Assembly (NCBI GenBank): GCA_943788985.1
Contig: CALSSJ010000015.1
Coordinates: 95,098-159,097 of the forward strand
Length of the DNA: 64,000 nt
Origin: an uncultured Lentisphaerales bacterium
Lineage (GTDB): Bacteria; Verrucomicrobiota; Lentisphaeria; JABSQK01; UBA12247
Direction: 5' to 3'
Part shown: piece by piece, positions 5,678-57,433 of the stretch
How positions within the stretch are numbered: the stretch's first letter is position 1
Layout of the letters: each line of letters begins with the position of its first letter
The notes under the pieces: generated by a model
Told to the model about the DNA's origin: nothing
The model's database searches: none
The model's input: the letters and a program-made list of their open reading frames with translations, nothing else
Program-made: the position numbers and the translations under genes

Positions 5678-6967
5678 TTAGCGTTGGCTGAGGGCTCCTC
5701 GGAGGGCGTTGACGGTGCGGTCTACGGCACCGCGCTGAGAGCGGACGACGTCGAGGGCAGCCTGGCCCAGCCGGGCGCGTTCTGCGGAATCCGCAAGTAG
5801 GTGAGCTAGCTGCTTTTGCAGGTCCGCAGTGTCCTGGACCTGGACCGCTGCTTTGGCGTCCAGCAGGAGGTGGACGGTGGCTCGAAAATTCCCCATGTGA
5901 GGCCCGAAGAGAATTGGCTTGGCCAGCGCGGCTGGCTCGATCACGTTCTGGCCGCCCATCGCGGGGCCAAGACTCTTGCCGACGAAGACCAAATCCGCTG
6001 CCGAGAGATAGGACAGCAGCTCGCCGGTGGTGTCGCCGAGAAGTACGTCGACTGGCCCCTTGGGCAGGCCCTCGCTGAGCCGGGCGAGTTTTTCGAGCCC
6101 AAGCTCTTCGATCAATTCTGGGGTGCGCTCGGCATGGCGCGGGACGATCAGTAGGCGCAGGTCTGGATGTGAATTTCGCAACTCTTGCCAGCAATGGACC
6201 AGCGCTGCCTCCTCACCTGCATGGGTGCTGGCACCGACCAGCAGAGTAAAGGAGTCGCCGAAGGCTGACTTCAATTGCTGGCGCAGGCCAGCCTGGGCCT
6301 CACTCGGGATGAGATCGTATTTCATCGTGCCGATGACGGTCGTTTTGGCCGCAAACTCGTCGAAGCGTCGCGCGTCTTCGACTGTTTGGGCGAGGACAAC
6401 GGTGACGTGAGAAAGCAGGTAGCGCACCACGCCGCCGAGGCGGAGAAAGCCCCGCAGGGAGTTGTCAGACATCCTCGCATTTGCGATGACCACTGGGACG
6501 CGTTGCGAACTCCGCAGAATCAGCTGGGGCCAGAGCTCGACCTCCATGATGACGAGCATGCGGGGCTCGATCTGGTCTAGGGTGCGATCGATTGCACTGG
6601 GCAGGTCGAGCGGCGCGTAGATGACCTCGCAGCCGTCTGGGGCGCGCTCGCGCGCGAGTCGCTGGGCGGTATTGGTGGTGGTCGAGATGACAAAGGGCCG
6701 GCGGCGATCCACCGCTCGCCAGGCGTCGATCAAGAGCAGCGCTGCGTTCAATTCGCCGACGCTCACTGCATGGATCCAGATGGGGCGTGTCAGGTCGCGC
6801 AGCTGTGATCGCTTGTGATGCGAGAAGTAGCCGCGGCGCTCGCCGATGGTCTCAAGCTCGCCACCACGACGCTGGAGCTTCCGCCGGTAGAAGGGCCAGT
6901 AAAGGGCGTATGCGACGGGGTAGAAGCAGGAGTAGAACAGAAGGAATAGCCGTGTGCCCAGACTCAT
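5678..6967 (-). CDS. waaA: 3-deoxy-D-manno-octulosonic acid (Kdo) transferase
   Basis: IWIHAVSVGE, EVELWP, NARMS, ASTHAGEE, IVPRHAER, DTTGEL, GGQNVIEPA. Confidence 0.93.
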   Translation of the reverse strand: MSLGTRLFLLFYSCFYPVAYALYWPFYRRKLQRRGGELETIGERRGYFSHHKRSQLRDLTRPIWIHAVSVGELNAALLLIDAWRAVDRRRPFVISTTTNTAQRLARERAPDGCEVIYAPLDLPSAIDRTLDQIEPRMLVIMEVELWPQLILRSSQRVPVVIANARMSDNSLRGFLRLGGVVRYLLSHVTVVLAQTVEDARRFDEFAAKTTVIGTMKYDLIPSEAQAGLRQQLKSAFGDSFTLLVGASTHAGEEAALVHCWQELRNSHPDLRLLIVPRHAERTPELIEELGLEKLARLSEGLPKGPVDVLLGDTTGELLSYLSAADLVFVGKSLGPAMGGQNVIEPAALAKPILFGPHMGNFRATVHLLLDAKAAVQVQDTADLQKQLAHLLADSAERARLGQAALDVVRSQRGAVDRTVNALRGALSQR

Positions 6968-7084
6968 CTTAGGAGAACTCTCAGTGCGAGCGTAAAAGCG
7001 ATTCGTACTGGTAGCGCCTGCCGGGCCTTGTGCTTAGAACGCGCTCGTAAATTACACGGGGCCTGGATGCACTATTGTATCACA

Positions 7085-8113
7085 CTAGCAGATGCGGGGG
7101 AGTTGCTCGCCGCGCAGGAGGTCGAGGACGCGAGTGGCGCCTAGCTCACTGGTGAGGGTAACGATCCCGCGGGGAGACTCGTTGACGGTGCCGATCAGGC
7201 AGGCCTCACAGCCGGCGTTGCGGAGTTCGCAAATTGCGGAGTCCGCAGATTCTGGGGCGACAATGGCGAGGAAGCGGCCTTCGTTGGCGAGATAGAGCGG
7301 ATCGAGGCCGAGGAGTTCGCTGGCGCCACGGACGGCGTCGGTGACGGGGATGGCCTGGGCGTTGAGCGAGAGTGAGCAGTTTGCGGAGTTCGCAATCTCG
7401 TTTGCAGCGCTGGCGAGGCCGCCGCGGGTGAGGTCGCGCAGGCAGTGCACCTCGACGTCGGAGGCGAGCACGGCTGCGATCGGGGCTGCGAGTGAGCAGA
7501 GATCGCTTTCGATGTTGGTCTCGAAGGCGATGCCTTCACGGGAGGCCATGACGGCGGTGGCGTGGCGGCCGAGGTCGCCACTGAGGATGAGGGCGTCGCC
7601 GGGACGGACGGAGCGGGGATGAATGTCGCTGCCGTGGTTGAGGGGGCCGATGCCGCTGGTGTTGATGTAGATGCCGTCGCACTTGCCGCGTTCGACGACT
7701 TTGGTGTCGCCAGTGACGATCTGTACGTCTGCTTCGCGGGCGGCGGTGGCGATGGATTCGATGATCCTGCGCAGCTTGGCCATGGGCAGGCCTTCTTCGA
7801 GGATGAGGCCGAGGCTGATGGCTTGGGGTGTGGCACCGCGCATGGCGAGATCGTTGACGGTGCCGAATACGGCCAGTCGGCCGATGTCACCGCCGGGAAA
7901 GAATATCGGCTTGACCACGAAGCTGTCGGTGGTGAAGGCGACGGGCCCGGCGATGTCCAGTGCTGCGGAGTCCGCATCGGCCTGCAGGCCGAGCCCGACG
8001 AAGGCTTCGGCAAAGACGGACTGGATGAGTTCGGCCATGAGCCGACCGCCACCGCCGTGGGCTTGGAGGATGGTGTCGCCGTGGTGGTGCTCGATGGGGC
8101 AGCTTAGGTTCAT
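7085..8113 (-). CDS. hypE: Hydrogenase maturation protein HypE
   Basis: [34 protein letters not shown]-terminal EQLPRIC. Confidence 0.96.
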
Positions 8114-9201
8114 AGCGCGACTCTCCGAAAGCGATAGTAGGCAGCGCAGGCGCCTTCATCGGAGACCATCGGCGCGCCCAGCGGGGAGTCGGGTGTGCAG
8201 CGGGTGCCGAAGGCGGTACAGGCGGTGGGTTTGCAGCGGCCCTGGAGGACCTCGCCGGCGATGCACTCGGCGGGTTCGGGGACGGTGCCGCCGTTGAGGC
8301 CAAAGCGTTGTTCGGCGTCAAACTGCGCGTATTCGGCGCGCAGCACGAGGCCACTCTGCGGGATCTCGCCAATGCCGCGCCAGGTCTGTGCAGCAGGCTC
8401 GAAGACGGTCTCGAGAATGGAGCGGGCGGTGGGGTTGCCGTCGTCTCGTGCGGATCTGGCGTAGCAATTGCGCACGGTGGCTTCGCCTGCTTCGAGCTGG
8501 CGCACGCACTCGAGGATGCCATCAAGAATGTCGAGCGGTTCGAAGCCGGTGACGGCAATGGGGACGTGGTAGCGAGCGGCGATGGGTAGGTACTCGGCGG
8601 AGCCGGTGATGGTGCAGACGTGCCCGGCGGCCAGGAATGCCTGGACCCGTGCTTCGTCATGACTGAGGATGGCTTCGATCGCTGGCGGGACGAGGACCTG
8701 AGAGACGAGGGCGCTATAGTTGGTCAGGTTCTGGCGGGCGGCTTGAAAGATGGCCATGGCGTTGGGCGGCGCGGTGGTTTCGAAGCCAATGGCAAAGAAC
8801 ACGATCTGGCGGTCGGGATTCTCGGCGGCGACGGTGAGCGCATCGAGCGGTGAGTAGACGATGCGCACATCAGCGCCCTGGGCGCGGACGGTGAGCAGGT
8901 CGGTCGCGGAGCCAGGGACCCGCAGCATGTCGCCGAAGGAACAGAGGATGACGTCTGGCCGCCGGGCGAGGGCGATAGCGGCGTCGATCTTGCCGAGCGG
9001 GGTGACGCAGACGGGACAGCCGGGGCCGTGTAGCAGCTCGATGCCGTCGGGCAAGAGGTCCTGAATGCCATAGCGCATGATGGCGTGGGTCTGCCCGCCG
9101 CAAATCTCCATGATGGTCCATGGCTGGGTTGCGGACGCCGCAATTTTTGCGGCGATTTTCTTGGCGGTCTCGCAATCTCGATACTCGTCCAGATACTTCA
9201 C
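8110..9201 (-). CDS. hypD: Hydrogenase maturation protein HypD
   Basis: [38 protein letters not shown]. Confidence 0.96.
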
Positions 9202-9443: not shown

Positions 9444-11614
9444 GGCAGGCCTCGGGTTCGGGAAGCGATGAGTTGGCCCACGGCGATACCGCCATCGTTC
9501 GGGGGGACAAGCTGAGGCCAATGTGGCGTAAATCGGGCGTGACGCAAGCTGGCTATTGCCTCGGTAAGTAGCGAGCGGTTTTGGAAGCAGCCGCCGGAGA
9601 GGAGCACGTCTGGTAGCGCTTGGGCCTGAGCGATTTGGACGATGAGGGCGACGAGCGCCCGATGAAACCGCGCGGCGATGGTCCCAGTGGCGGTGCCGGC
9701 ATCGAGGTCGGCGCAGATCGCCCGGATGAGCGGCCGCCAGTCGGCTTGCATGCCGTCGAGCGTGATTGGGTAGGTGTCCTGACCAGGACTAATGGCGTGC
9801 TCCAAGGCCATAGCCGCATGGCCCTCGTATTCTACTTTTTTGATGAGGCCGATGAGGGCGCTGACGGCGTCGAACAGGCGGCCCATGGCACTGCATTGTG
9901 GCGAGTTTAGCCCGGTCGCTAGCTGGGTGTCGAGGATGTGAGTTGCGGACTTCGCAAATCCCAGACGGTGGCAGGGGAGGCCACAGCTTCGCAGCAGGGC
10001 ATAGGCAATACGGTCAGGGGATTGAATGGCTGCCTCGCCGCCGAGCAACGGGAATGGCCGCAAGGTGCTCACGCGCTCACAAAAGCGGTCGCGAATGACA
10101 AAGCTTTCGCCGCCCCAGATGGTCCCGTCATGGCCGTAGCCGGTGCCATCCCAGATGATGGCGAGGCAGGGCTGGGTGAGGCTGTGCTCGGCTACGCCGG
10201 CCCAGGCGTGTGCCTCATGATGCTGGACGCGGACGGTGGGCCTGTCGAGGCGCTCCGCCTCGAGGGTGGTGGCGTAGTCTGGGTGAAGGTCGCAGACAAC
10301 GGTGGGGTGGGCGGGAGCGATGCGATCTCGAAGCTGCTCGTGGGTCTGTCGGGTTGCCAGGGTAGTGAGGTCGCCGATGTGTTGGCTGAGGACGATGCGG
10401 TCACCGCGAGAAGCCGCGAGGGTGTTCTTGAGCTGGCCACCAAGCGCGAGCACGGGCCCGCCAGGTGGCGCGTGGAAGGGGATTGCCTGGGGATAGCCCC
10501 GGGCTCGGCGGATGAGGGTGGCCTTTTCGTCGATGACGATGACGATGGAGTCGTCGAGCGGCTCGACGATGTCGCGGTTGTGCATCAGCCAGGCGTCTGC
10601 GATCTGCGCAAGGCGCGCGATGGCTTCGTCGTTGCTGATGCAGATGGTCTCACCAGAGACGTTGCCGCTGGTGGCGATGAGCGGGCGTTGGAGTTGGTCG
10701 AGCAGCAGGTGGTGAAGGGGGGTGCAGGGAAGCATGGCGCCGATGTGGCTGGATGCGCAACGATGCCGCGGGCGTAGGAGGACGATGGGGGCGGCGGGTG
10801 AGCTGAGAATGGCGCGCTCGCTGGGGGTGACCTGGCAGTGGCGCTCGATGGCTGCTAAATCTGGATAGAGGATCGCCAGCGGTTTGGAGCTGCGACGTTT
10901 GCGCAGGCGTAGGCGCTCGACTGCCTGCGGGTTCTGGGCGTCGACCATGAGTTGGAAGCCGCCTATGCCTTTGAAGGCGAGGATCTGGCCAGCTTCGAGG
11001 GTGGCGCAGGCCGCCTCGAGTGGATTGCCGCCGTGGGGGCCCCGGTAGTGGAGGCTTGGCCCGCAAGTGGGACAGGCGTTGGTCTGGGAGTGAAACCTGC
11101 GGTCGGTGGGGCTGCGTGTTTCGCTCTGGCAAGCAAGACATTGGGCGAAGGCGGACATGGAGGAGGAGGCGCGATCCCACGGCAGTTCCAAGCAGATACT
11201 CTGGCGTGGCCCGCACTGGGTGCAGCTAATGAAGGAATAGCCGTGGCGCCGATCGGCAGGATTGCGGAGTTCGCAAAGGCAGGCGGGGCAGGTGGCGAGG
11301 TCGGGGGGGAGGTCGGTGGTGATGGCACCATCGGTGCTCTGGAGGATCCGAAAGTCGCTGGCATGGCGTGGGGGGGCGGGGGTGATGGTTACGCTGGTGA
11401 TGTGCGCGTGCTGCGGTGGTCGCTGCTGGAGGTTATCGGCAAACGCCCGCAGGGCAGCGGGCGCGCCCTCGACGGTAATCGAGAGGCCGTCTGCGGTGTT
11501 GCGCACTTGGCCACAGAGCTGGAGCTGGGTGGCTTGGGTGTGAATCCATGGCCGAAAGCCGACGCCCTGGACCACGCCAGTGACGCGGACATCGCAGCTC
11601 TGGATTTCACTCAT
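9434..11614 (-). CDS. hypF: Carbamoyltransferase HypF
   Basis: Acylphosphatase GVVQGVGFRP, Zn fingers, KGIGGF, TSGN, QHHEAH, DGTGYG, LSGGCFQN, PPNDGG. Confidence 0.95.
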   Translation of the reverse strand: MSEIQSCDVRVTGVVQGVGFRPWIHTQATQLQLCGQVRNTADGLSITVEGAPAALRAFADNLQQRPPQHAHITSVTITPAPPRHASDFRILQSTDGAITTDLPPDLATCPACLCELRNPADRRHGYSFISCTQCGPRQSICLELPWDRASSSMSAFAQCLACQSETRSPTDRRFHSQTNACPTCGPSLHYRGPHGGNPLEAACATLEAGQILAFKGIGGFQLMVDAQNPQAVERLRLRKRRSSKPLAILYPDLAAIERHCQVTPSERAILSSPAAPIVLLRPRHRCASSHIGAMLPCTPLHHLLLDQLQRPLIATSGNVSGETICISNDEAIARLAQIADAWLMHNRDIVEPLDDSIVIVIDEKATLIRRARGYPQAIPFHAPPGGPVLALGGQLKNTLAASRGDRIVLSQHIGDLTTLATRQTHEQLRDRIAPAHPTVVCDLHPDYATTLEAERLDRPTVRVQHHEAHAWAGVAEHSLTQPCLAIIWDGTGYGHDGTIWGGESFVIRDRFCERVSTLRPFPLLGGEAAIQSPDRIAYALLRSCGLPCHRLGFAKSATHILDTQLATGLNSPQCSAMGRLFDAVSALIGLIKKVEYEGHAAMALEHAISPGQDTYPITLDGMQADWRPLIRAICADLDAGTATGTIAARFHRALVALIVQIAQAQALPDVLLSGGCFQNRSLLTEAIASLRHARFTPHWPQLVPPNDGGIAVGQLIASRTRGLPCV

Positions 11615-11638: not shown

Positions 11639-12046
11639 TCATGCATCTTTTGCGATCTCCGCAATGACGGCCTGGGCGGCTTGGAGAACTGCTGGCGAGA
11701 GGTCTTGACCAAGGTCGAATGTCTGGCCTTCGATGCCGTAGAGGCGCAGGTCGGTAGGGAGTTGGCCGAGGGCGCGTAGACGCTCAATGGCCTCGGCAAT
11801 GTTGAAGTCGCCGGGGATGGTGGTTCGGTGGGCGTCGATGCGGTGAATAGTGCCCGGTTCGTGCTGAAGGGGCACGGCGTGTACCAGGCAGGCTTTTGGG
11901 TGGGCCTGTAGTAGCTCAAGGAGTTCTGTGCCCTCTGCAGAGACTTCGGTGACGATGAGGCCGGGCCGCAAGTGCGCGACGGCCCTAGCTAGGTAATGGC
12001 CGACACCATCGTCGCTGCGCAGTCTGTTGCCAACGCTGATGATCAT
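11639..12046 (-). CDS. Hydrogenase maturation protease-like protein (degenerate)
   Basis: GNRLRSDDGVG, LYGIEG, LSPAV; usual VDA reads VHA and the STH segment is absent. Confidence 0.8.
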   Translation of the reverse strand: MIISVGNRLRSDDGVGHYLARAVAHLRPGLIVTEVSAEGTELLELLQAHPKACLVHAVPLQHEPGTIHRIDAHRTTIPGDFNIAEAIERLRALGQLPTDLRLYGIEGQTFDLGQDLSPAVLQAAQAVIAEIAKDA

Positions 12047-12148: not shown

Positions 12149-13156
12149 TTACTGATCTGCATCGGGGGTGGAGAGTTCCTCGAGGACTTCGAGGTAGTTC
12201 GCGCGCTCGAAGTCGCCGGGGGTGGCCGAGGCGGATCTGCTCAGCAAGCCCTGGAGGCTTCGTACTGACTCGTGCCCATAGTCGAGAATCAGCTCCTCCA
12301 AGCTCTCGCGCAGGACGCGCACCTGATCTACGCCATGACGAAGCAGAGAGCCCGCCACCATGACAGCATCTGCACCTACGAGGAGATACTTCATGACCTG
12401 CTCGGCGGTTTCGACGCCGCGTCCGCCTGCGAGAGAGCAGATGATCATGTCGCGAAGCATCCCGATCCAGAGTAGCGGCAGGCGAATCTCATCGGGAGTG
12501 CTGGGGGCGAGATTGCGGTCGACCGATAGCCGGCTGAGGTCAATGTCTGGCTGGTAGAAGCGATTAAACAGCACGAGTGAATCTGCCCCTGCTGCATCGA
12601 AGCGGATTGCGATGTTCGCAAAGGATGTAAAGAACGGACTCAGCTTGAGGGCTATTGGGATATTTACGGCGCGCTTGACAGTCTTGAGGGTATCGAGATA
12701 CTGGCTCTCGATATTCACGGCGGGCTGGTCGGGGTCGGCTGCGACCCGGTAGAGGTTGAGTTCCACAGCATCGGCGCCGGCTTGTTCGATTTGTCTGGCG
12801 TAGTTTGCCCAGCCTTGGAAGGTGCAGCCATTCAGGCTGGCGATGATTGGGATGTCCACGGCCTGTTTGGCCGCGACAATGTGGGAGAGATACTGGTCTG
12901 GACCCACGGGCCTGGCGATGGGAGGCAGATACCTTGCTGCCTCGGCGGGTGCATTACCTGCGAGATCCAGGGCGCGGGCGACTGCGGCACGATCGCGCGA
13001 GACTTGCTCCTCGAACAGGGAGTAGAGCACGACTGCTCCGGCCCCTGCGTCCTCCATTTTTTTGATGCTGTCGAGCGAGCGTGAGAGCGGGCACGCCGAT
13101 ACGATGATCGGGCAGCTCAATTCGAGATTCATATAACGTGTTGAAAGATCGGTCAT
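12149..13156 (-). CDS. Dihydroorotate dehydrogenase-like flavoprotein
   Basis: GAGAVVLYSLFEEQ, IPIIASLNG, KLSPFF, LVLFNRFYQPDID; RBS AGGAG before ATG 13156. Confidence 0.88.
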   Translation of the reverse strand: MTDLSTRYMNLELSCPIIVSACPLSRSLDSIKKMEDAGAGAVVLYSLFEEQVSRDRAAVARALDLAGNAPAEAARYLPPIARPVGPDQYLSHIVAAKQAVDIPIIASLNGCTFQGWANYARQIEQAGADAVELNLYRVAADPDQPAVNIESQYLDTLKTVKRAVNIPIALKLSPFFTSFANIAIRFDAAGADSLVLFNRFYQPDIDLSRLSVDRNLAPSTPDEIRLPLLWIGMLRDMIICSLAGGRGVETAEQVMKYLLVGADAVMVAGSLLRHGVDQVRVLRESLEELILDYGHESVRSLQGLLSRSASATPGDFERANYLEVLEELSTPDADQ

Positions 13157-13350: not shown

Positions 13351-14550
13351 ATGAGTCGCGCGATGAAAGATGAACAGGGCGAGTACCAGGCAGGGGCGTT
13401 TCACGAGATGTTTGCTCGTGGCCGTGCTTCGGGGCGCCTGCGCCTGACGCGCGAGGGCGTGGCTTTCAGCAACGACCAAGGCTCGGTTCTACTGCCGATG
13501 TCAGGGCTCAAAGTGGAATTGGGCGGGGCGAGCGATCGGCTCGTGTTTTTTAAGTCTGCAGCAGAGCCGGCTTGGTCCGTGTACACGTCTGATCGGGATA
13601 TTTTGAAGGATCCAAGCCTGGAGATTTCACTGGCAGATCGGCAGGCGATTAGCAAGACGCGGAGCCTTGCCAAGCTCGCCTGGGTGGCAGCGGTGGGGTT
13701 AGTCCTGGCGGCGGGACTCGTGACGCTGCTACTCTGGTCGCAGCGGGCTTTGCTGAGCGGCTGGCTGGCGAGCAAGATTCCGGCCGAGCAGGAGGCCAAG
13801 CTTGGTGAACTTATCGCCGAGCAGTTCGCGGGCTCGAAACGAGTGCTGAGCGAGGATGAGGATCTGGCAGGCGACTGGGGGGCGATGTTGGCACCACTGC
13901 TAGAGGGCGTGGATGGGAATCGCTATGATTATGATATTGTGCTGATCGAGGACTCGGTGCCGAACGCGTTCGCGCTACCGGGCGGCAAGATTTTCGTCCA
14001 TAGTGGGCTGCTGCTGCAGGCAGAACGCCCCGAGGAAGTGCTGGGGGTGGTGGCGCATGAGATCGCGCACGTGAACCTGCAGCATGGCACGCGGGCTGTA
14101 CTCGAGACGGTGACGCTGGTGGTGGTTGTGCAGGCGCTAATCGGCGACTTTTCTGGGGTGATCGCGCTGGCAGCGGAGGGCGGCGTGGCGCTGTTGACAA
14201 AGGCGCACTCGCGCGATGCCGAACGTGAGGCCGATGAGGTGGGCTGGGGCTATATGATGAAGGCGGGCCTGGATCCGGCCGCCATGATTTCGTTGTTTGA
14301 GAAGCTGGGGGAACTGCAGGAAGTCCATGAAGGATTGGAAGATGCTATCGCCTGGATCTCGACGCACCCAACCACCGACGAGCGGGTCGCGACGCTGGAA
14401 GGAAAACGCGATGCGCTCACTGAGGAATACGCGCCGCTGGTATTCGATTTCGAGTCGTTTCTGACGCGCGTTCGCGGCGTGCTGTTGAACCCTGAGGATG
14501 ATGAGTCCCCCACCGAGAATAGAGAGGAGTCTGATGAACACACACATTGA
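13351..14550 (+). CDS. M48 family zinc metallopeptidase
   Basis: NAFALPGG, HEIAH, SRDAEREAD, STHP; one TM segment. Confidence 0.9.
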   Translation: MSRAMKDEQGEYQAGAFHEMFARGRASGRLRLTREGVAFSNDQGSVLLPMSGLKVELGGASDRLVFFKSAAEPAWSVYTSDRDILKDPSLEISLADRQAISKTRSLAKLAWVAAVGLVLAAGLVTLLLWSQRALLSGWLASKIPAEQEAKLGELIAEQFAGSKRVLSEDEDLAGDWGAMLAPLLEGVDGNRYDYDIVLIEDSVPNAFALPGGKIFVHSGLLLQAERPEEVLGVVAHEIAHVNLQHGTRAVLETVTLVVVVQALIGDFSGVIALAAEGGVALLTKAHSRDAEREADEVGWGYMMKAGLDPAAMISLFEKLGELQEVHEGLEDAIAWISTHPTTDERVATLEGKRDALTEEYAPLVFDFESFLTRVRGVLLNPEDDESPTENREESDEHTH

Positions 14551-15193
14551 AGGATCGCCATCCTTTGCCTACATCCAGGTAGACCTTGAGCCTGGGGAGT
14601 CCGTGATCGCCGAGTCCAACGCGATGGCCAGCATGGCTGGTGATATCGATCTGGACACGAAGTTTAATGGTGGATTTATGCGGGGCCTGCTGCGCAAATT
14701 TTTGGGCGGAGAGTCGCTGTTTGTGAATCATTTCACCAACAACCAGGCCGAGGCCCGCCGGATCACATTGGTGCAGCCGAATCCCGGTGATATTCACGAA
14801 CTAGAGCTGAACGGCGATTCGTTCTGCTTGCAACCGGGCGCATACATCTGCTCTAGCCCGGATGTGGAGCTGGGGCTGCAATGGGCGGGCCTTCGTTCTG
14901 GAATCTCGCGCGAGGGCTTTTTCCGGCTGAAGCTGTCGGGGCACGGGACTGTGTGGTACGGCGCCTACGGTGGGATGATCACACGGCAGATCGATGGCGA
15001 GTACATCGTGGATACGAGTCATCTTGTGGGCTACGAACCGCAGATCAACCTGAAGCTCCAGCTGGCGGGCGGCCTTTTCTCCAGCTTTTTCGGGGGCGAG
15101 GGCTTGGTGACACGCGTAGAAGGTAAGGGCAAGATTGTGATTCAAACCCGCAGCCTCAGTGGACTGCGCGACTATATGAACCCGAGGATCTGA
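14534..15193 (+). CDS. AIM24 / TIGR00266 family protein 1
   Basis: AESNAMASM, GGESLFVN, VDTSHLVG, GGEGLV, QTRS. Confidence 0.9.
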   Translation: MNTHIEGSPSFAYIQVDLEPGESVIAESNAMASMAGDIDLDTKFNGGFMRGLLRKFLGGESLFVNHFTNNQAEARRITLVQPNPGDIHELELNGDSFCLQPGAYICSSPDVELGLQWAGLRSGISREGFFRLKLSGHGTVWYGAYGGMITRQIDGEYIVDTSHLVGYEPQINLKLQLAGGLFSSFFGGEGLVTRVEGKGKIVIQTRSLSGLRDYMNPRI

Positions 15194-15195
15194 TC

Positions 15196-47922: not shown

Positions 47923-47930
47923 CGGCCAGC

Positions 47931-49463
47931 ATGGCACGCGGACGCAGCATCATTGGGTCCTTGCCAACGGACGGAAATCCGCAGGCGCCGCAGCCTCCTG
48001 CTGACCCGGAGCCTAAGCAGGGCGCCAAGGCGCAGAAGGGAAAGTCTACTAGCATCATCGGCTCGCTGCCGACTGCTGGTGGCGGTCCCGCGGCGCCTAC
48101 GCCAGCAGCCGAAGCGCCAGCACCGGCTCCCTTGCCGCCAGCACCGTCTCCACTGGCACCGGCCCCCGCGGCTTCCAAGCCCAAGGGGCGGAAGAGGAAG
48201 AGCGACAGCTTGATCGGAGATCTGCCCGGAGACCAGGCTTCGCCGTCGACTCCGGCCCAGGCGCAGCCCGCCGCGCAGACCAAGAAGCCAAAGGCAGCCA
48301 AAAGCGGCAGCCTGATCGGGTCCTTACCGGAGCCGCAAGAGGCAAAGCCCCCGCCAGCCCCAGCACCTGTACCCTTGCCTGCTGCGCAGACCCAGCCGCC
48401 GACCGCCCCGAAAGGCAGCAGTTTGATCGGATCCCTACCCGTGCCGCAAGGGATACCGGCTCCACCAGCTGCCGCCCCGCCCACGACAGTTTCGGCAGCA
48501 GAGCGGACAGAGGTCGAGAATCAGGCCGCATACGTGCCGATGCCTGCGGACATCGCACCAGAGCCGACGCCACATCGCTCAGCTGATCCCGCGTCCAGCA
48601 GTATCATTGGTGCACTTGTTGAGCGCGCGGCCCCTTCGCCCAATGATACCGGGACTTTCGCCGGGCTTCCCACTGCTGAGAGGGCCACGGTGCACGAACA
48701 CCATGACAGCGCGCGCGGCTTCCGTCTGATCGTCCGCAAGCGCAACGATGGGCCCAGGCCGCAGAGAGCAGTTCATTCTTTTACCTATCGGCAGGATCTG
48801 CGCGTGGGTGGAATGACGGACTGCGACGTCTACCTCCCCGAGGCAACTGGAGCTGTCACCTTGGGCGTAGGCCCAGGATCGATCGCCTTGGTCAAAATCG
48901 ATGCCCCTGCAGGAATCTTGCTCAACGGTCACCAGCCATTGGCGCTGCCAGCCCCGCTCAAGAACGGCGATGAGCTGATCTGGGGTGCCTACAGCGTTCG
49001 GCTCGCCATCCAGCTGCAACAGGTCGACGGTGAGAACCGCTCGCGCAGCCTGGTCGGTCGGCTCACCGTATTGTTGGTGTGCGCCGCCTTGGCCTGGCAG
49101 TTTGCGATGGTCGGCGGCTTGACTTGGGTCATCTTCGACAGAATGGAGTTGGGGCACGAAATCGCCCGCGCGCGCCTGGTGCACCGCATTGACGACATCA
49201 AGGGAAAGATCGCGACCAGCGAGCTTGACCAGGAAGATGTGCGGCAAGCCATGCTGCTAGAAGCCATGCGCGGAGAACTCAAGCATATAACCGGTTACCT
49301 GCGCGAGTATCGCTCCGATCTTAGTGATCGGCAGGTGGCGGACTTTAATCGCCAGCTCGCCGGTCTGCAGACCGTGCTCGAGGATCTAGACGCTGACACC
49401 TTTGGCTACCTCCCCGCCGTTCAGGCGCGGCCCTATTTGGAGCGGTTGTTACGCAGTGAATAA
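47931..49463 (+). CDS. Hypothetical membrane protein: Pro/Ala-rich tail with repeated S[IL]IG[SD]LP motifs, FHA-like domain, TM, helical C-terminus
   Basis: Five near-exact motif copies plus SIIGALV; LRVGGMTDCDVYL...LLNG...LKNGDELIWGAY; one long hydrophobic segment. Confidence 0.65.
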   Translation: MARGRSIIGSLPTDGNPQAPQPPADPEPKQGAKAQKGKSTSIIGSLPTAGGGPAAPTPAAEAPAPAPLPPAPSPLAPAPAASKPKGRKRKSDSLIGDLPGDQASPSTPAQAQPAAQTKKPKAAKSGSLIGSLPEPQEAKPPPAPAPVPLPAAQTQPPTAPKGSSLIGSLPVPQGIPAPPAAAPPTTVSAAERTEVENQAAYVPMPADIAPEPTPHRSADPASSSIIGALVERAAPSPNDTGTFAGLPTAERATVHEHHDSARGFRLIVRKRNDGPRPQRAVHSFTYRQDLRVGGMTDCDVYLPEATGAVTLGVGPGSIALVKIDAPAGILLNGHQPLALPAPLKNGDELIWGAYSVRLAIQLQQVDGENRSRSLVGRLTVLLVCAALAWQFAMVGGLTWVIFDRMELGHEIARARLVHRIDDIKGKIATSELDQEDVRQAMLLEAMRGELKHITGYLREYRSDLSDRQVADFNRQLAGLQTVLEDLDADTFGYLPAVQARPYLERLLRSE

Positions 49464-50427
49464 TCTCGAGATTCTCGGGCAGGTTTCCCAGCGGCACATC
49501 GCCGTTATCGGGGACATGATGGTGGACCGCTACATTTGGGGGAAAACCTCACGCATCAGCGAAGAAGCGCCCGTTCCCGTCGTCCAAGTTCAGTCGCGCA
49601 GCGAGACGCTCGGCGGCGCGGCCAATGTCTTGCGCAATCTCGCCTGTCTGGGCGCTCGCACCTCAGCATTTGGGGCCGTAGGCCAGGATCCGGGCGGGGA
49701 CTCATTTGCCGCGCTGTGCGCCGAGGATGGTATCGACACCCGTGGCATCGTGATCACCCCTGAGCGCCCGACCACGCGCAAGTCACGCGTCGTCTGTGGT
49801 CGCCAGCAAATGCTGCGGCTGGATGACGAGGTCACCAGCGCCATCGCCGTCGAGACCACGGCTGAGATCTGCGCACGATTCGAAGCGCTCCTTGCCGAAG
49901 ATCCGCCCGACGCGGTGATCATCGAAGATTACTGCAAGGGCTGCGTGAGCCAGGAACTGGCTGGTCACGTGGTCGCGATTGCGAACTCCGCAGGCATCGC
50001 TGTGGCGCTGGACCCGCATCCGGGAAACCGGCTGTGGGTCCGAGACCTAGTGTTGCTCAAACCCAACTGTGCCGAGGCCTACGCTATGGCGAACTTGCCG
50101 GCTGAAGCGCCGCTGGAGGCTGTCGTGCAGACGCTGCTCGAGCGCTGGCAGGCCAAGAATCTCTTGATCACCCTAGGCCGTCGCGGCATGGCCCTGGCCC
50201 AAGAGGACGGCACGCTTGCATACATCGCCACTGCGCCGCGGGAAGTGTTCGATGTCTCCGGGGCTGGAGATACCTCGATCGCTACGTTTGTGGCTTGCCT
50301 CGCCTCGGGTGCCTCGCCGTTGCAGGCTGCGAACATCGCAAACGAAGCCGGTGGCGTGGTCGTCACCCACGTAGGCACGGTACCGATCACGCTTTGCGAA
50401 CTCCGCAATGCCCTTGCCGTCAGTTAG
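49456..50427 (+). CDS. rfaE1: D-glycero-beta-D-manno-heptose-7-phosphate kinase (HldE/RfaE domain I)
   Basis: GDMMVDRY, RISEEAPVPV, GGAANV, DYCKG, VFDVSGAGDT. Confidence 0.9.
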   Translation: MNNLEILGQVSQRHIAVIGDMMVDRYIWGKTSRISEEAPVPVVQVQSRSETLGGAANVLRNLACLGARTSAFGAVGQDPGGDSFAALCAEDGIDTRGIVITPERPTTRKSRVVCGRQQMLRLDDEVTSAIAVETTAEICARFEALLAEDPPDAVIIEDYCKGCVSQELAGHVVAIANSAGIAVALDPHPGNRLWVRDLVLLKPNCAEAYAMANLPAEAPLEAVVQTLLERWQAKNLLITLGRRGMALAQEDGTLAYIATAPREVFDVSGAGDTSIATFVACLASGASPLQAANIANEAGGVVVTHVGTVPITLCELRNALAVS

Positions 50428-51268
50428 CCGCCGTATGTTTCTCGCGGCTGGTTCCGCTGCTAGCGCAGCCGCCGCAAGTGGAGGGGAGCGTCTGCCGTTC
50501 TTCCGCAATGCGGACTACCACGTGCGCGAACTGCCGAGCCCACGCGAAGCCCTGTTAGGCTACTCGGTTTATCACGAGTTTGATGTCGACCCACGCAAGA
50601 CTGCGGAGTCCGCTGCGAACTTCGCAGCCCCAACCTGGAACCTGGAAGTGCGCGGCAAGGTGGGCAAGACGCTTCGTCTGAATGCCGGTGACCTTGTCTC
50701 GATGTTCCCGCTCGAGGAGCGCGTCTATCGGTTTCGCACCATCACGGGAGTCGGCATGGTCGTCCCCTGGCTTGGCTTTCCACTCGAGTTGCTGCTTGAC
50801 CGAGCGGCGGTCAGCGCCGATGCGAAGTTCGCAACCTTCACCTCGCTTCAAGATCCAGAGCAGCTGCCGAACCAACGCCCGGACAGCGGCCTGGGACTGG
50901 ACTGGCCGTATCGCGAAAGTCTGACGCTCGCCGAGGCGAGCCACCCGCTCGCCTTTCTTGCCGTAGGCGTGTACGGCTATCGGCTGCCCGCGCATTTCGG
51001 CGCTCCGGTACGCCTGATTGTCCCTTGGAAGTACAGCTACAAAGGCCCAAATGCGGTAGTCTCGATCGAGCTTTCGAGCGAGCGCCCTGCCTCCACCTGG
51101 GAGACGGCACTGCCGCATGAATACGAGTTTTCGGGAAATGTTGATCCGGCTCGCCCGCATCCTCGCTGGGGGCAGGGAACCGAACGCCGCTTAGACCGCG
51201 CTGGCCGCTGGCGCTCGCTGCCATACAACGGCTACGGCAAAGATGTGCAGGACCTGTATCCGGGCTAA
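50408..51268 (+). CDS. MsrP/YedY-like Tat-exported protein lacking the Mo-ligand Cys
   Basis: Tat SRRMFL; LEERVYRFR, VPWLGFPL, WPYRESL, GAPVRLIVPWKY, NVDP..PHPRW, YNGYG. Confidence 0.8.
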   Translation: MPLPSVSRRMFLAAGSAASAAAASGGERLPFFRNADYHVRELPSPREALLGYSVYHEFDVDPRKTAESAANFAAPTWNLEVRGKVGKTLRLNAGDLVSMFPLEERVYRFRTITGVGMVVPWLGFPLELLLDRAAVSADAKFATFTSLQDPEQLPNQRPDSGLGLDWPYRESLTLAEASHPLAFLAVGVYGYRLPAHFGAPVRLIVPWKYSYKGPNAVVSIELSSERPASTWETALPHEYEFSGNVDPARPHPRWGQGTERRLDRAGRWRSLPYNGYGKDVQDLYPG

Positions 51269-51666
51269 GAGGCTGGGCCAAAGGAGGCCTTGAGCTTGCG
51301 GATGATTTGCCGCAGTTTTTCCTCCTGCTTGTCATCCAAAACCGGCTCGAGTTGCTGCACGGACTCTTTCAGAATGGCGTTCACTTCAGGCTGATTTCGC
51401 AATTTCACCGTGCGTAGTCGCTCATGGGTCGCCTCGAGGATTCGCGCCACTTCAGACCGTTGGTCTTGACGCAGGTCCAAACGTCGGACAAGGCGCCGCT
51501 CGACGACTTTGCGGACCGAATCCGGCCCGCCGGCTGCTAGCTTTTGCATGCGCGAGCGAACGATTCCGAGGGTCCCGACTGTGCCGATGGCGATCCCCAA
51601 CAGCAGGATGGCGATCATGCCGGTGATCTTCTTGCTGCGAGGTGGAGTTTGCGGGTGGTCTGTCAT
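51265..51666 (-). CDS. Membrane-anchored periplasmic helical protein (CpxP/heavy-metal-sensor-like)
   Basis: N-terminal TM, RLDLRQDQ, VLDDKQ; last gene of the ECF operon. Confidence 0.6.
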   Translation of the reverse strand: MTDHPQTPPRSKKITGMIAILLLGIAIGTVGTLGIVRSRMQKLAAGGPDSVRKVVERRLVRRLDLRQDQRSEVARILEATHERLRTVKLRNQPEVNAILKESVQQLEPVLDDKQEEKLRQIIRKLKASFGPAS

Positions 51667-51956
51667 AGGAATACGGCTCCGACAAGTGGCTCCACAGACT
51701 GTTGAATCAGAGCATCTGCGACCGAAGCTTCGATCGGCGCTACGCTCACCGACCACACGGCTACGATGACCAGGAGGCTGGCCGCCGCGGCGATGAATTG
51801 CCAGAGCAGCAGGTCAGGTTTTGCGGACTCCGCAACCGGCTGTTGCAGCGCCTTCAGGACGTCGTCCTCCCAGCCGGGCTGCGTGGGCGGTGGCTCGGAG
51901 GCCAGCTGCCACGCTGCGCGAAAGCGTGCCTCAGAATCAGGGCTATCGTTACTCAT
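51663..51956 (-). CDS. Putative anti-sigma factor
   Basis: Small single-TM protein overlapping the ECF sigma stop. Confidence 0.55.
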   Translation of the reverse strand: MSNDSPDSEARFRAAWQLASEPPPTQPGWEDDVLKALQQPVAESAKPDLLLWQFIAAAASLLVIVAVWSVSVAPIEASVADALIQQSVEPLVGAVFL

Positions 51957-52588: not shown

Positions 52589-52604
52589 GCCTACGGAAGG
52601 TTCA

Positions 52605-53258: not shown

Positions 53259-53888
53259 ATGGGACGAACGATATTTATTGGCGATATTCATGGTTGCCTG
53301 GACGAATTCCTGGCGATTCTAGACCGACTTGCGATCACCGCAGGCGACCGTGTGATCTGTATTGGCGACTTGATCAACAAGGGACCGAAGTCGGCAGCAG
53401 TGGTGCGGGTGGTCTACAAGCGCGGTTTCGAATGCCTGCGTGGGAATCATGACCACAGCTACCTGAAGCATCCAGAGAACCGCCGCTATGCAGAACTCCA
53501 TGACGCGCTCCCAGGCAAGGTGCGTAAGTGGTACGGCAAGTTACCGCTTTACATTGAGGACCAGCACTTTCTAGCGGTGCACGCCGGGCTGGCACCCGGT
53601 CTTGGGATTGCCGGACAGGACCCACATATTCTCATGTCTATTCGCACTTGGGATGGAAAGGGAGATCGCTTGAATTCAGCAGACGATCCGCCCTGGTACA
53701 GCTTCTATAAGGGACAGAAGCCTGTGATCTACGGGCATTGGGCTGCCGCCGGCTTAACGGTTCGTCGCCATACGATCGGGCTGGACAGCGGCTGCGTGTA
53801 CGGAAACCAACTCACGGCGTATGTCTTGGAGACCGGCGAGATTATCCAAGTGCAGGCCAAGAAAGTCTATGCGGCGGTGAGCGGGTGA
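53259..53888 (+). CDS. Metallophosphoesterase (ApaH/PrpE-like)
   Basis: GDIHG, GDLINKG, GNHD, VHAG, GH, LDSGCVYG. Confidence 0.9.
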   Translation: MGRTIFIGDIHGCLDEFLAILDRLAITAGDRVICIGDLINKGPKSAAVVRVVYKRGFECLRGNHDHSYLKHPENRRYAELHDALPGKVRKWYGKLPLYIEDQHFLAVHAGLAPGLGIAGQDPHILMSIRTWDGKGDRLNSADDPPWYSFYKGQKPVIYGHWAAAGLTVRRHTIGLDSGCVYGNQLTAYVLETGEIIQVQAKKVYAAVSG

Positions 53889-54259
53889 CGGCGCTGGTCA
53901 TCGTTGATCATGGAAGCAAGCGCGAGGCTGCCAATCGCATGCTGCAGCAGATGTGTGAGCTGGTGCTAGGTCAGGCCGCCGGCCGCTACATGTGCGTGCG
54001 TCCGGCACACATGGAATTGGCGGAACCCACTTTGGGCCAGGCGATCGATGCCTGCGTGGCAGATGGTGCGACCACGGTGATCATCAGCCTGCTATTTCTC
54101 GCGCCAGGCCGCCATGCGACCGCGGATATCCCGGCGCTGGTTGCGGAGTCCGCAACGGCTCACCCGGGGCTCGAGATCCACCTCGCGGAGCCATTGGGGC
54201 TGGACGCACTGCTCGCAGATTTGCTTATCAAACGCGCGGATCAGGCGCGTTCGGGATAA
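53885..54259 (+). CDS. CbiX/SirB-type short chelatase
   Basis: VDHGS, AHMELAEP, FLAPGRH, DIP, AEPLG. Confidence 0.88.
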   Translation: MTALVIVDHGSKREAANRMLQQMCELVLGQAAGRYMCVRPAHMELAEPTLGQAIDACVADGATTVIISLLFLAPGRHATADIPALVAESATAHPGLEIHLAEPLGLDALLADLLIKRADQARSG

Positions 54260-54285
54260 CACAAGAACCAAGGCCGGGAGGCACA

Positions 54286-56424
54286 ATGCCGACGCCGATG
54301 CACAAGTTGATCGGACGCAGTATTTTACTATCAGGAACAGATCCGGAGCAGAAGCGCGAAGAGCTGCGCGCTTATTTTCACCGCACATTCACGCTCTACG
54401 AGCGGCTGTTCGAGACGCTGGTGGCGGAGGACGCCTATTACGAGCGGCCGGAGCCTTTGCGCCACCCGTTGATCTTTTACTACGGGCATACCGCTACGTT
54501 CTTTGTCAATAAGCTAATTTTGGCTAAGGCCATTCCGCAGCGGATTAATCCGCGGTTCGAAGCGATGTTCGCGATCGGGGTCGACGAGATGAGCTGGGAT
54601 GACCTGAATGACGCGCACTATCAATGGCCCCGCGTCGAGGACGTCCGGGCCTATCGCAACCAGGTGCGTGAGCTGGTGGACGCAGTGATCTCTGAGCAGG
54701 ACCTGTCGCTGCCGATTCACTGGGATACGTTTGTGCCATGGACGATCTGCATGGGGATCGAGCACGAGCGCATTCATCTTGAGACCAGCTCCGTACTGAT
54801 CCGGCAGTTGGACGTTCGCTGGGTGCAGCCGCACGCGGACTGGCCTATCTGCACGGACAGCGGAGAAGCTCCAGAGAACGTCATGCAGCCAGTTCCCGCC
54901 GGGACCGTCGATATCGGCAAACAGCGTTCGGATGGGCTCTATGGGTGGGATAATGAATATGGCACGCACCGGGCCGAAGTTGCGGAGTTCGCAGCCTCGA
55001 AGTACCTGATCAGCAATCAAGAATTCCGCGGCTTCATGGATGCTGGCGGCTACCAAACGCCAGAATGGTGGACCGAGGAAGGGCGCAATTGGCTCGCATT
55101 CAGCGGGCGCGAGTACCCGATTTTCTGGTTGAAGGATGGGGCAGGGAACTATCGCTTCCGGACCATGCTGCAGGAGATTGAGATGCCGTGGGATTGGCCG
55201 GCAGAGGTGAACTATCTCGAGGCCAAGGCGTTCTGTAAGTGGCGCGCCACCGTTACGGGGCACCTTGTGCGGTTGCCCACCGAAGATGAGTGGCACCGCT
55301 TGCACGACAGCTGTGGAATTCCGGATCAGCCGGATTGGCCAGAGACGGTCCCGTTCAATATCAACCTGGAGCATGGGGCCTCTTCGGTGCCCGTGAACCG
55401 CCATGAGCTGGGTGGTTTCTGTGACGTGATCGGCAATGTCTGGCAATGGACGGAGACGCCCATTCACGGGTTCGATGGATTCGAGGTGCATCCGCTCTAT
55501 GATGATTTCTCGAGCCCCACCTTCGATAATCAGCATAACTTGATCAAGGGCGGGTCCTGGATCGCCACCGGAAATGAAGCGACACGTTTGGGCCGCTATG
55601 CGTTTCGGCGGCACTTTTTTCAGCACGTCGGCTTTCGTCTGGTCGAAGGAGAGGAGCTGCCGCCTTTAGCCGAATTGCCGAACGAGGACTATGAGACCGA
55701 CGCCGCAGTTTCTCAGTACTGCGAATTCCACTACGGAGCCAGCTGCTTCGGCGTGCCAAATTTCCCGGAGGCGGTGGTTCAGCATGTGCTGGACCATCAC
55801 ATGGGCGGGACCGAGCGCGCGTTGGATCTTGGCTGTGCAGTTGGGCGGGGCACCTTTGAGCTGGCCCGAGTCTTTGAGCAAGCGACCGGCATCGATTTCT
55901 CGGCGCGATTCATTCGGCAGGCAATTTCTCTGCAAGAGCACGGCTTCGTCAGCTACGCAATCTGCGATGAAGGCAGTCTCACCAGTGCTCGTGAGTACAC
56001 GCTCGAGGATCTTGGGCTGCTCGGACTCGAGACCAAAGTGACGTTCTGTCAAGGCGATGCGCACAACCTGCGACCGCAATTTAGCGACTACGACCTGATC
56101 ACTGCGGTGAATCTGATCGACCGCTTGTACGAGCCACAAAAGTTTTTGGAAAGCCTGCACGAGCGGTTGCGCCCTGGCGGGACTTTGGCGATTACGTCTC
56201 CTTATACATGGCTGGAGGAATACACGGCTCCCGAGAACTGGCTGGGGGGCTTTACCCGGGACGGCGAGGCGGTCACGACGCTGGACGCCCTGCGCCAGAT
56301 TCTAAGCCCGCGTTTTGAGCCGATCACAGATCCGATCGATGTGCCGTTTGTGATTCGCGAGACGGCGCGCAAGCACCAACACACGGTCAGCCACCTCACG
56401 CTATGGCGGCGCCGCGATGTCTGA
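54286..56424 (+). CDS. ovoA: Ovothiol synthase: 5-histidylcysteine sulfoxide synthase plus methyltransferase
   Basis: LRHPLIFYYGHTATFFVNKL, GVDEMSWDD, HERIHLETSSVL, YGWDNEYG, RYAFRRHFFQHVGFR, SAM motif LDLGCAVGR. Confidence 0.93.
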   Translation: MPTPMHKLIGRSILLSGTDPEQKREELRAYFHRTFTLYERLFETLVAEDAYYERPEPLRHPLIFYYGHTATFFVNKLILAKAIPQRINPRFEAMFAIGVDEMSWDDLNDAHYQWPRVEDVRAYRNQVRELVDAVISEQDLSLPIHWDTFVPWTICMGIEHERIHLETSSVLIRQLDVRWVQPHADWPICTDSGEAPENVMQPVPAGTVDIGKQRSDGLYGWDNEYGTHRAEVAEFAASKYLISNQEFRGFMDAGGYQTPEWWTEEGRNWLAFSGREYPIFWLKDGAGNYRFRTMLQEIEMPWDWPAEVNYLEAKAFCKWRATVTGHLVRLPTEDEWHRLHDSCGIPDQPDWPETVPFNINLEHGASSVPVNRHELGGFCDVIGNVWQWTETPIHGFDGFEVHPLYDDFSSPTFDNQHNLIKGGSWIATGNEATRLGRYAFRRHFFQHVGFRLVEGEELPPLAELPNEDYETDAAVSQYCEFHYGASCFGVPNFPEAVVQHVLDHHMGGTERALDLGCAVGRGTFELARVFEQATGIDFSARFIRQAISLQEHGFVSYAICDEGSLTSAREYTLEDLGLLGLETKVTFCQGDAHNLRPQFSDYDLITAVNLIDRLYEPQKFLESLHERLRPGGTLAITSPYTWLEEYTAPENWLGGFTRDGEAVTTLDALRQILSPRFEPITDPIDVPFVIRETARKHQHTVSHLTLWRRRDV

Positions 56425-57433
56425 AGATCGCTACAGTCGGCAGGTGCGCTTTTCCGGAATCGGGGAGAGCGGTCAGCAAAAGCTGGTGGAGGCGTCGGTG
56501 CTGCTGGTGGGCTGCGGTGGATTGGGTACCGTGCTGGCGGACATGCTGGGCCGGGCGGGGATCGGCAAGCTGCACATCATCGACCGCGACTATGTGGAGC
56601 TCAGTAACCTGCAACGACAGATGCTGTTTACGACGGCCGATGCCACCGAGCGGTTGCCCAAAGCCGCTGCAGCCCGCGACCGGCTGGCTCTGATCAACCC
56701 GGAGATCACCGTGGAAGCCACCATCGGTGAGTTTTCGGCAGCCTGCGCGGACGAGTTGGTGGCGGATGCGTCGCTGGTGATCGACGGTACGGACAATCTT
56801 GGGACGCGGTATTTGATCAACGACGCCTGCGTCGCGGCAGGCAAGCCGTGGATCTATGGGGCGGCCGTGGGCAGCTCCGGAATGGCCATGTCGATCACGC
56901 CAGGGGCTTCGCCTTGCTTTCGCTGCATTTTCCCTGAAGCGCCCCGAGCCGGAAGCGCCCAGACCTGTGATACTGCGGGCGTGCTCTCGCCCATCCTGCA
57001 CCAGGTCGCTGCGCAACAGGCAACGCTGGCCTTTCAGCTGCTGACCGGTGACCACGGTCAGACCGGGCAGTTGTTTCAGTTTGATTGTTGGACCGGTCAG
57101 TTTGATCGGCTAGATCTGCGCACCGCGAAGAACCCAGAATGTGTGTGTTGCGGACTTCGCAACTTCGAGCATCTCGATGCAGTTGCGCGGGAGACCACGA
57201 CTTCGTTGTGCGGGCGGAATGCCATTCAGATTGCGCCGGCGACACCGGATGCGGTGGATCTGGCGGCCCTAGCCGAGCGGTTGCGCCGTTCTGGAAGAGT
57301 GACCGAGAATCCATACTTGCTCAGCTTCGCAGGGGATGGCGTGTCCTTTACGGTGTTTCGCGATGGCCGCGCCGTAGTGCATGAAACCACCGATGCTGTC
57401 GTGGCGAGAGGTATTCGAGATCGCTACGTCTGA
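56417..57433 (+). CDS. ThiF/MoeB family adenylyltransferase
   Basis: RYSRQ, GCGGLG, DRDYVELSNLQRQ, DGTDN, CFRC, CDTAGV. Confidence 0.92.
   Translation: MSEDRYSRQVRFSGIGESGQQKLVEASVLLVGCGGLGTVLADMLGRAGIGKLHIIDRDYVELSNLQRQMLFTTADATERLPKAAAARDRLALINPEITVEATIGEFSAACADELVADASLVIDGTDNLGTRYLINDACVAAGKPWIYGAAVGSSGMAMSITPGASPCFRCIFPEAPRAGSAQTCDTAGVLSPILHQVAAQQATLAFQLLTGDHGQTGQLFQFDCWTGQFDRLDLRTAKNPECVCCGLRNFEHLDAVARETTTSLCGRNAIQIAPATPDAVDLAALAERLRRSGRVTENPYLLSFAGDGVSFTVFRDGRAVVHETTDAVVARGIRDRYV

Follow-up and report, generated by a model that had tools for sequence, protein, structure and literature searches.

A spaced-dyad DNA word written in place by substitution across the genome of a Lentisphaerales bacterium

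Genome-wide "self" words are, to our knowledge, established experimentally in only a few groups, the Pasteurellaceae, the Neisseriaceae and, lately, the cyanobacteria, and their origin is still debated. The best described are the uptake signal sequence (USS) of Pasteurellaceae and the DNA uptake sequence (DUS) of Neisseriaceae, the latter with lineage "dialects", and HIP1 (highly iterated palindrome 1, GCGATCGC) of cyanobacteria, which has reportedly been proposed as an uptake sequence in a bioRxiv preprint. A repeated site of another kind, matS, is a 13-bp palindrome with a degenerate centre, and the known cases of its type comprise tens of sites in one chromosome region. As far as the accessible parts of the respective papers go, USS has roughly doubled the tripeptides that it specifies, keeps to preferred codons and does not occur in genes that lack homologues, and both USS and DUS sit at poorly conserved residues (Findlay and Redfield, PMC2817400); HIP1 sites show more conservation between genomes than neutrality would predict (PMC5861425); and HIP1, which correlates with pilus and competence genes, has been proposed as a watermark for uptake or horizontal gene transfer, with two cognate methylases and an enhancement of transformation that depends on methylation (PMC13756078). 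Here we describe a word of comparable abundance of copies within genes, the spaced dyad TTGCG-N5-CGCAA, found in a 64,000-nucleotide stretch of DNA (the window; GenBank assembly GCA_943788985.1, contig CALSSJ010000015.1, C15:95098-159097) from an uncultured Lentisphaerales bacterium and followed through its genome and those of its relatives. Taken as a whole, we consider it quite probable that this word is made by substitution in place, is kept at the level of DNA and answers to a directional force acting genome-wide.

The window belongs to a 4.58-Mb assembly of 48 contigs (58.3% GC, 83.6% completeness) and holds 30 exact matches to TGCGRASTYCGCA between 6504 and 57161, where 100 dinucleotide shuffles average 0.02 matches and never exceed 1. 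Across the genome such strict copies number 850, whereas 1.4, 1.1 and 4.0 would be expected from Markov models of the first, third and fifth order (a seventh-order model gives 79, but itself already includes most of the word). The looser pattern TGCG-N5-CGCA occurs 46 times in the window, where spacers of 3, 4, 6 or 7 bases yield 1-5 copies each, and the spacing of 5 bases is exact, because genome-wide the N5 form has 1749 copies and each of nine other spacer lengths only 142-183. The word usually extends to the 15-mer TTGCG...CGCAA, with T at 91% just 5' of the GCG core and at 64% one position further out; the flanks beyond are background, and conservation ends at 15 bp among the copies of the genome. 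Its arms are sharp, with 380 perfect 15-mers compared with 97 one-change copies totalled across eight arm positions, and the spacer fits RASTY in 850 of the 1749 looser copies.

An initial annotation of this DNA, made from its letters, had described the word as a palindrome. The spaced dyad is real, but its centre is asymmetric: the centre base is strongly coupled to the arms (424 copies of the GAGTT class versus 78 of the GACTT class, p 1e-58), and therefore the consensus in this genome is TTGCGGAGTTCGCAA, which is not a true palindrome. The same annotation held that the R and Y positions vary independently, which is correct once sites are oriented by the centre base (chi-square 2.0, p 0.16) but does not extend to the centre itself, and it rightly named the swap of an inner A/T as the commonest variant, GAGAT/ATCTC being the fourth commonest class of all (100 copies genome-wide), with ATGTT/AACAT, GACAT/ATGTC and AAGAT/ATCTT at 43, 42 and 33. 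Compared with HIP1, the word is interrupted (5+5+5), longer and, in this genome, asymmetric in its spacer. No account of it, nor of transformation in the Lentisphaer- group, was found in the open-access literature searched.

Copies arise in place by point substitution, both synonymous and amino-acid-changing, at near-cognate or tolerant positions, as comparison of 18 sites with their homologues demonstrates. Fourteen of these sites are in the window (13 of the 30 strict sites and one variant) and four in a fused GlyQS gene on contig C21, which was set against 13 relatives. The window sites comprise two strict and one variant site in Nnr (compared with 29 relatives), four in HypE, aligned to solved structures because hypE is present in only 3 of 41 genomes, and two in MutM, one in PNPase, two in MsrP and two in HypF, each compared with homologues. 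Residues encoded by the motif are matched by residues, never by a gap, at 18 of 18 sites, and a motif-sized insertion is nowhere seen. Small length differences adjoin five sites (two residues after the Nnr variant, one after the second strict Nnr site, two beside the adjacent HypE pair and three after the second HypF site), and at four of the five it is the sequence of this genome that is shorter. The 13 orthologous bases of GlyQS align without gaps in 13 of 13 relatives and show 2-10 mismatches to the word, and conserved positions were already near-cognate, the relatives having D-D-F-A or A-D-F-S where this genome has A-D-F-A or A-N-F-A. The sites are not flanked by direct repeats of 2-5 bp more often than a shifted control is, and target duplications are absent. 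Judged from these alignments, motif residues appear to occupy somewhat less conserved columns, mean conservation being 0.59 for motif residues and 0.72 for others in GlyQS, and 0.40 and 0.56 in Nnr, a small sample. The initial annotation had proposed that sites arose by point mutation and not by insertion, and had suggested alignment with orthologues as a check; the gap-free substitution found at motif positions bears it out. An inserted repeat of the repetitive extragenic palindromic (REP) or miniature inverted-repeat transposable element (MITE) type was accordingly rejected as a candidate, on these grounds and on the location of 740 of the 850 copies in genes.

Genes were called genome-wide with a simple codon-score caller (3576 genes, 83.8% of bases), checked against NCBIfam/Pfam matches in the window only. 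Copies have a density of 0.193 per kb in called genes and, with 110 copies, 0.149 per kb between them. Within genes the word is read in all three frames, as the initial annotation had noticed: 522 coding copies encode A-x-x-A, 110 L/V-R-x-x-Q/H and 108 C-x-x-R (21, 4 and 5 in the window, counting the copy at 21717 in A-x-x-A by arithmetic), whereas the expected numbers are 0.52, 0.07 and 0.18 under a codon model and 1.32, 0.18 and 0.26 under a dicodon model, an enrichment of about 400-1500 fold in every phase. Because the observed shares of the three phases (70, 15 and 15%) are close to those predicted (67-75, 9-10 and 15-24%), codon usage accounts for the phase bias through the opportunities it offers, and the bias is no sign of peptide selection. 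The variant spectrum is the same between genes as within them, GAGTT, GAGTC, AAGTT and AAGTC numbering 60, 27, 15 and 8 in intergenic DNA and 364, 212, 94 and 70 in coding DNA.

The peptides tell the same story from the other side. The eight tetrapeptides A[EDNK][SF]A are seen 874 times, compared with 262 expected from amino-acid frequencies and 225 for peptides of reversed order, and 549 of the 874 are spelled in the exact motif codons, where codon usage predicts 9.7; for C[EG][LV]R, 153 are seen and 25 expected, and 116 of the 153 are motif-coded compared with 5.8 expected (the codon-skew test used strings drawn from the genome's matches). Once motif-coded copies are removed the peptides fall near expectation, so it is the DNA word that creates the peptides and not the reverse. 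The proteome-wide peptide excess and codon skew that the initial annotation had proposed to look for are both present, its contrary outcome of peptides kept under free codon choice is contradicted, and its view that the constraint is on DNA rather than peptide agrees with the frames, the intergenic spectrum and the codons alike. A role at the level of RNA was also rejected, sense and antisense orientations in genes being nearly equal, with a slight preference for sense (408 versus 332). That the peptides themselves are selected, or that copies were inserted as small mobile elements like REP or MITE, might seem to be favoured by the concentration of 70% of coding copies in one phase and by the pairing of some copies 15-16 bp apart, yet we find this scarcely credible: all frames are enriched, density between genes is equal, 63% of the peptides use one codon string of 64 possible, residual peptides are near expectation and reversed-order controls far below the count observed, insertions are missing at 18 of 18 sites compared, and there are neither flanking duplications nor any conservation past 15 bp.

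The comparison set comprises 40 genomes from this genome's order or class but from other families (f- and g- labels denote families and genera of the set, and G000 is this genome). Lineages f1, f3, f8, f12, g15 and g18 are the motif-rich ones. Exact copies number 291 in G032, 188 in G017, 29-123 in family f3, 43-124 in genus g18 and 8-13 in genus g15, with 0-4 in the remaining relatives and 0-2 for a reversed-pattern control. When one mismatch is allowed, counts rise from 8 to 133 in G022, from 95 to 432 in G028 and from 850 to 1677 in this genome, and g15, g18 and f3 gain far more than does the latter. In 400 kb of G028 (40.8% GC) TGCG-N5-CGCA occurs 87 times versus 0-4 for other spacers, its spacer bases almost free and a T preceding the arm, and in 385 kb of G022 (61% GC) it occurs 45 times versus 8-13. 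Since arms and spacing are common to these lineages and the spacer is almost free in G028, the core shared across the class is TTGCG-N5-CGCAA, and RASTY is a lineage preference of this genome. Copies were gained independently, because this genome's sites are absent from relatives and one f3 GlyQS site is common to f3 only. A separate run of overlapping 13-mers repeated 27-28 times, unrelated to the word and probably a coding tandem repeat, was also encountered in G028 (C1:1-400000).

Since the set contains no close relative of this genome, conservation was tested in genus g18, by comparing 60 kb of G028 with syntenic DNA of two congeners, G034 and G025, whose aligned blocks have nucleotide identities of 69-95% (mostly 70-87%). 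The eight arm bases are all intact at 15 of 26 sites in G034 and at 12 of 24 in G025, against fractions of 0.17 and 0.11 in control windows of matched arm GC (p ~3e-6 each). At third-codon positions the arms have an identity of 0.72-0.75, compared with 0.53-0.54 for the spacer and 0.52-0.56 for other positions (p 0.002 and 4e-5). Preservation of the arms is much sharper than neutral decay would permit, and their retention at orthologous and third-codon positions places the constraint at the level of DNA; the maintenance of sites that the initial annotation had supposed is thereby found, in genus g18. Arms kept at orthologous and synonymous positions with a free spacer, in a dyad of strict 5-bp spacing, also suit a different explanation, an array of binding sites for an abundant dimeric nucleoid or chromosome-organising protein, held by weak direct selection on each site in a very large population with neither uptake nor drive. 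Evidence of the same type led Xu et al., in the part of their paper accessible to us, to a nucleoid role for HIP1 (PMC5861425), and the clustering of copies and their occurrence in phage structural genes, described below, are compatible with such an array. However, it would require of each of some 1700 sites a benefit above its amino-acid cost, a cost incurred at many sites, with peptides 3.3-6 fold in excess; no candidate protein was identified, and several related lineages are without any excess of the word. We regard the array as rather unlikely, if still to be reckoned with.

The word is present on all 48 contigs and its copies are evenly spread along genes, with no preferred position within them. 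It is not enriched between convergent genes, the 44 copies in 142 kb of convergent spacers being similar to other spacer types, and copies are clustered, both short and very long gaps being in excess. Intergenic clusters were looked at as operators of a cognate regulator, with nothing decisive. In form the word resembles matS-like sites, which likewise have two short inverted half-sites around a degenerate centre and are read on duplex DNA by a dimer, but it differs from them in its roughly 1700 sites over all contigs. It also differs from polar words of the Chi or FtsK-orienting polar sequence (KOPS) type, as the orientation given by its centre base shows no bias with respect to GC skew (chi-square 0.04, p 0.85). 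Density climbs with local GC, from 0.08 per kb at 50-54% to 0.75 per kb at 60-63% (Spearman 0.52 over 5-kb bins genome-wide), while a spacer-6 control remains flat at about 0.03 per kb; this link could reflect residence time, or a recombination-linked process such as GC-biased conversion. The window itself begins with low-GC DNA (1-5700, 51% GC in the first 4 kb) that carries an IS91-family transposase at 59-1396, has no copy before 5783 and looks like recently acquired DNA.

Scarcity in low-GC, probably foreign, DNA is one of three observations in keeping with a self-marker by which resident DNA would be shielded from nuclease attack, in the manner of Chi and RecBCD, so that both the host and its successful phages gain the word. 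The second is a RecC-family gene present in this genome, which itself holds three copies. The third is a motif-rich phage contig from IMG/VR (L090, 14.6 kb, 60% GC) with five strict copies and one variant, located inside a protease-like open reading frame (ORF), a portal gene and one unannotated ORF; the contig is a tailed-phage module (terminase, portal, head, neck and tail fibre) and probably represents a phage or prophage of a motif-bearing host. Known Chi sites, on the other hand, are short, contiguous and polar, whereas here orientation is unbiased and a spaced dyad implies recognition of duplex DNA, and L090 is the only motif-rich one of 60 viral loci with the exact 15-mer, the other 59 having one chance-level copy each. 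A nuclease-shielding role of this kind therefore strikes us as very doubtful.

A closer parallel to HIP1 would have the word targeted by an orphan methyltransferase, or by an enzyme that nicks DNA or carries out short-patch repair, with near-cognates converted by biased repair or by methylation-dependent processes. Very sharp arms speak for this, as does the resemblance of a bipartite site of 4-5 + N5 + 4-5 bases to Type I-like recognition sites, and so do the two methylases that recognise HIP1 and the methylation-dependence of its effect on transformation, as set out in the accessible part of the source cited above. Against it, the one intact C5 methylase of this genome is without a homologue at E <= 1e-10 in 5 of 5 f3 and 3 of 3 g18 genomes, which are motif-rich; searches of this genome, 83.6% complete, turned up no Vsr, N4/N6 (PF01555) or Dam-type (PF02086) gene; its N6_Mtase genes carry frameshifts and are located in an island of low GC that has no copy of the motif; and PF02384 is present in 0 of 5 f3 genomes, yet in most motif-poor ones. 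The tracking covered four methylase families, none of which follows the motif-rich lineages, and the link to methyltransferases or short-patch repair was rejected; we judge this explanation unlikely. The N6_Mtase locus itself (C36:36244-38483 of this genome) consists of two tandem genes of Type I or IIG-like kind with pieces in different frames, within an 11-kb motif-free island of 48-55% GC, and represents a restriction-modification island in decay or else a misassembly.

The explanation that we favour treats the word as a "watermark" in double-stranded DNA, made of the 5-bp half-sites TTGCG and CGCAA exactly 5 bp apart. Centre to centre these stand one helical turn apart, and that layout suits a two-fold symmetric, probably dimeric, DNA-binding protein. 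A genome-wide directional force would make and keep the copies, and this genome's lineage would add its RASTY spacer preference as a "dialect". The driver might be molecular drive through sequence-biased DNA uptake or recombination, mediated by the dimeric protein, a mechanism that is established for USS and DUS and has lately been proposed for HIP1; by analogy with these words we put this forward tentatively, as possible and not yet as probable. The analogy draws on several likenesses. USS and DUS, too, are single short words present within genes in hundreds to thousands of copies and in several frames, with inflated peptides and a frame choice that follows codon usage; they are scarce in foreign genes, sit at less conserved residues and have lineage "dialects", to which the spacer preferences would correspond. 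HIP1 resembles the word in being palindrome-like, hyper-abundant within and between genes and patchy in its clade, in having sites conserved between genomes (here in genus g18 only) and in showing no RNA, peptide or regulatory pattern.

Several points weigh against a driver of this kind. Known USS and DUS are contiguous and asymmetric, whereas the word is a spaced dyad from another phylum, and it is neither enriched at terminators nor accompanied by an evident canonical ComEA. ComEC went undetected in this genome (83.6% complete) but is present in 39 of 41 genomes, whether these are rich or poor in the motif; PilT occurs in 41 of 41; and a ComEA-type match over the curated cut-off was obtained in 1 of 41, a motif-poor one. 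As discriminators these competence genes proved uninformative, and no gene tested separates motif-rich from motif-poor lineages. Clustered copies, without even spacing or enrichment between convergent genes, count against the driver as well, as does the word's presence in phage structural genes, which uptake bias predicts only for a long-resident prophage. Moreover, the conservation tests come from another genus, and the reading frames depend on a crude gene caller with family checks confined to the window. We regard it as conceivable but doubtful that TTGCG-N5-CGCAA is recognised by a system for discriminating self-DNA (in uptake, recombination or nuclease protection) with a dimeric receptor, operating in several Lentisphaeria lineages with spacer "dialects". 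As a separate observation on competence genes, a second ComEC-like match in ORFs of 950-1270 amino acids was noted in G002, G005, G011, G013 and G017 (e.g., G005:C166:15403-16365), in the motif-rich families f3 and f8; G008, also of f3, has two fragmentary ComEC matches instead, and no long copy was observed elsewhere among the genomes, the motif-rich g18 and f12 included.

Within the window, the first strict site lies in waaA, a minus-strand gene (6504-6516, L-R-S-S-Q), and is followed by four in hypE (7219-7231, C-E-L-R-N; 7235-7247, A-D-S-A, 16 bp from the preceding copy; 7382-7394, A-N-S-A; 7964-7976, A-D-S-A) and two in hypF (9944-9956, A-K-S-A; 11263-11275, C-E-L-R-N). A GT4 glycosyltransferase gene has one (18986-18998, A-N-S-A) and an asparagine-synthase-like gene two (20696-20708, V-R-T-S-Q; 20899-20911, A-E-S-A), while the copy at 21717-21729 falls in an ORF missed by the gene caller (21040-22707, plus strand, an S9/DLH-type hydrolase), its A-x-x-A phase following from arithmetic. 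Further along, two sites each occur in mutM (25369-25381, A-D-S-A; 25730-25742, C-E-V-R-K) and in a polyprenyl synthase gene (26573-26585, L-R-T-P-H; 26805-26817, A-E-S-A), one in acpS, with its ACPS domain (27879-27891, L-R-T-S-Q), and two in nnr, both reading A-E-S-A, the first in a variable linker (28614-28626) and the second where orthologues have A-E-L-A/S (29376-29388). A lipoate-ligase-like gene carries one site (33781-33793, A-E-F-A), an ABC ATPase gene two (43060-43072, A-D-F-A; 43291-43303, A-E-F-A) and pnp one (45231-45243, A-E-F-A, aligned without gaps to A-A-L-A of E. coli-type PNPase). The hldE kinase gene has A-N-S-A at 49980-49992 and C-E-L-R-N at 50395-50407, and msrP has A-N-F-A at 50614-50626 and A-K-F-A at 50821-50833, the latter matching A-K-Y-V of a solved homologue, again free of gaps. 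The last four strict sites are in a small minus-strand ORF of 51663-51956 (51822-51834, A-E-S-A), a CbiX-like chelatase gene (54142-54154, A-E-S-A), ovoA (54981-54993, A-E-F-A) and a moeB/thiF-family gene (57149-57161, C-G-L-R-N). The peptides quoted in the initial annotation (pnp VAEFAT, nnr VAESA, mutM ADSA and CEVRK, msrP AKFA, waaA LRSSQ, acpS LRTSQ, prenyl synthase LRTPH, hypF and hldE CELRN, moeB CGLRN) were all found.

Sixteen further TGCG-N5-CGCA copies in the window depart from the strict spacer: 5783-5795 (GAATC), 9130-9142 (GACGC), 10598-10610 (ATCTG), 11651-11663 (ATCTC, of the A/T-swapped class), 12608-12620 (ATGTT), 17201-17213 (GATGG), 19558-19570 (TTGTG), 20518-20530 (TAGTG), 29031-29043 (ATCTC, in nnr and without insertion relative to orthologues), 39160-39172 (GGATC), 39671-39683 (GAGAT), 48545-48557 (GACAT), 50328-50340 (AACAT), 53330-53342 (ATCAC), 58455-58467 (ATGTC) and 60740-60752 (GAGCC). 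Two other features of the window may be recorded. The PNPase encoded at 44500-46953 has 817 amino acids, about 100 residues more than solved bacterial enzymes, to which it aligns to residue 698 only, and models of S1 proteins match it to about residue 815, which suggests an extra C-terminal S1-like region in the PNPase of this genome. At 14534-15873, two adjoining paralogous genes belong to the uncharacterised TIGR00266 family.

To the small group of "self" words this case adds a spaced dyad, from an unrelated phylum that has received little study. The word reshapes the proteome, making its peptides three to six times commoner than expected. Because related lineages keep the arms and differ in the spacer, it offers a natural comparison for separating drive from selection. 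The 15-bp word can serve as bait for finding the protein that reads it, and as a flag that tells native from recently acquired DNA it could help to link phages and plasmids to their hosts. A self-DNA discrimination system, if that is what the word serves, would be without precedent in the Planctomycetes-Verrucomicrobia-Chlamydiae (PVC) group, and likewise in being built on a spaced dyad.

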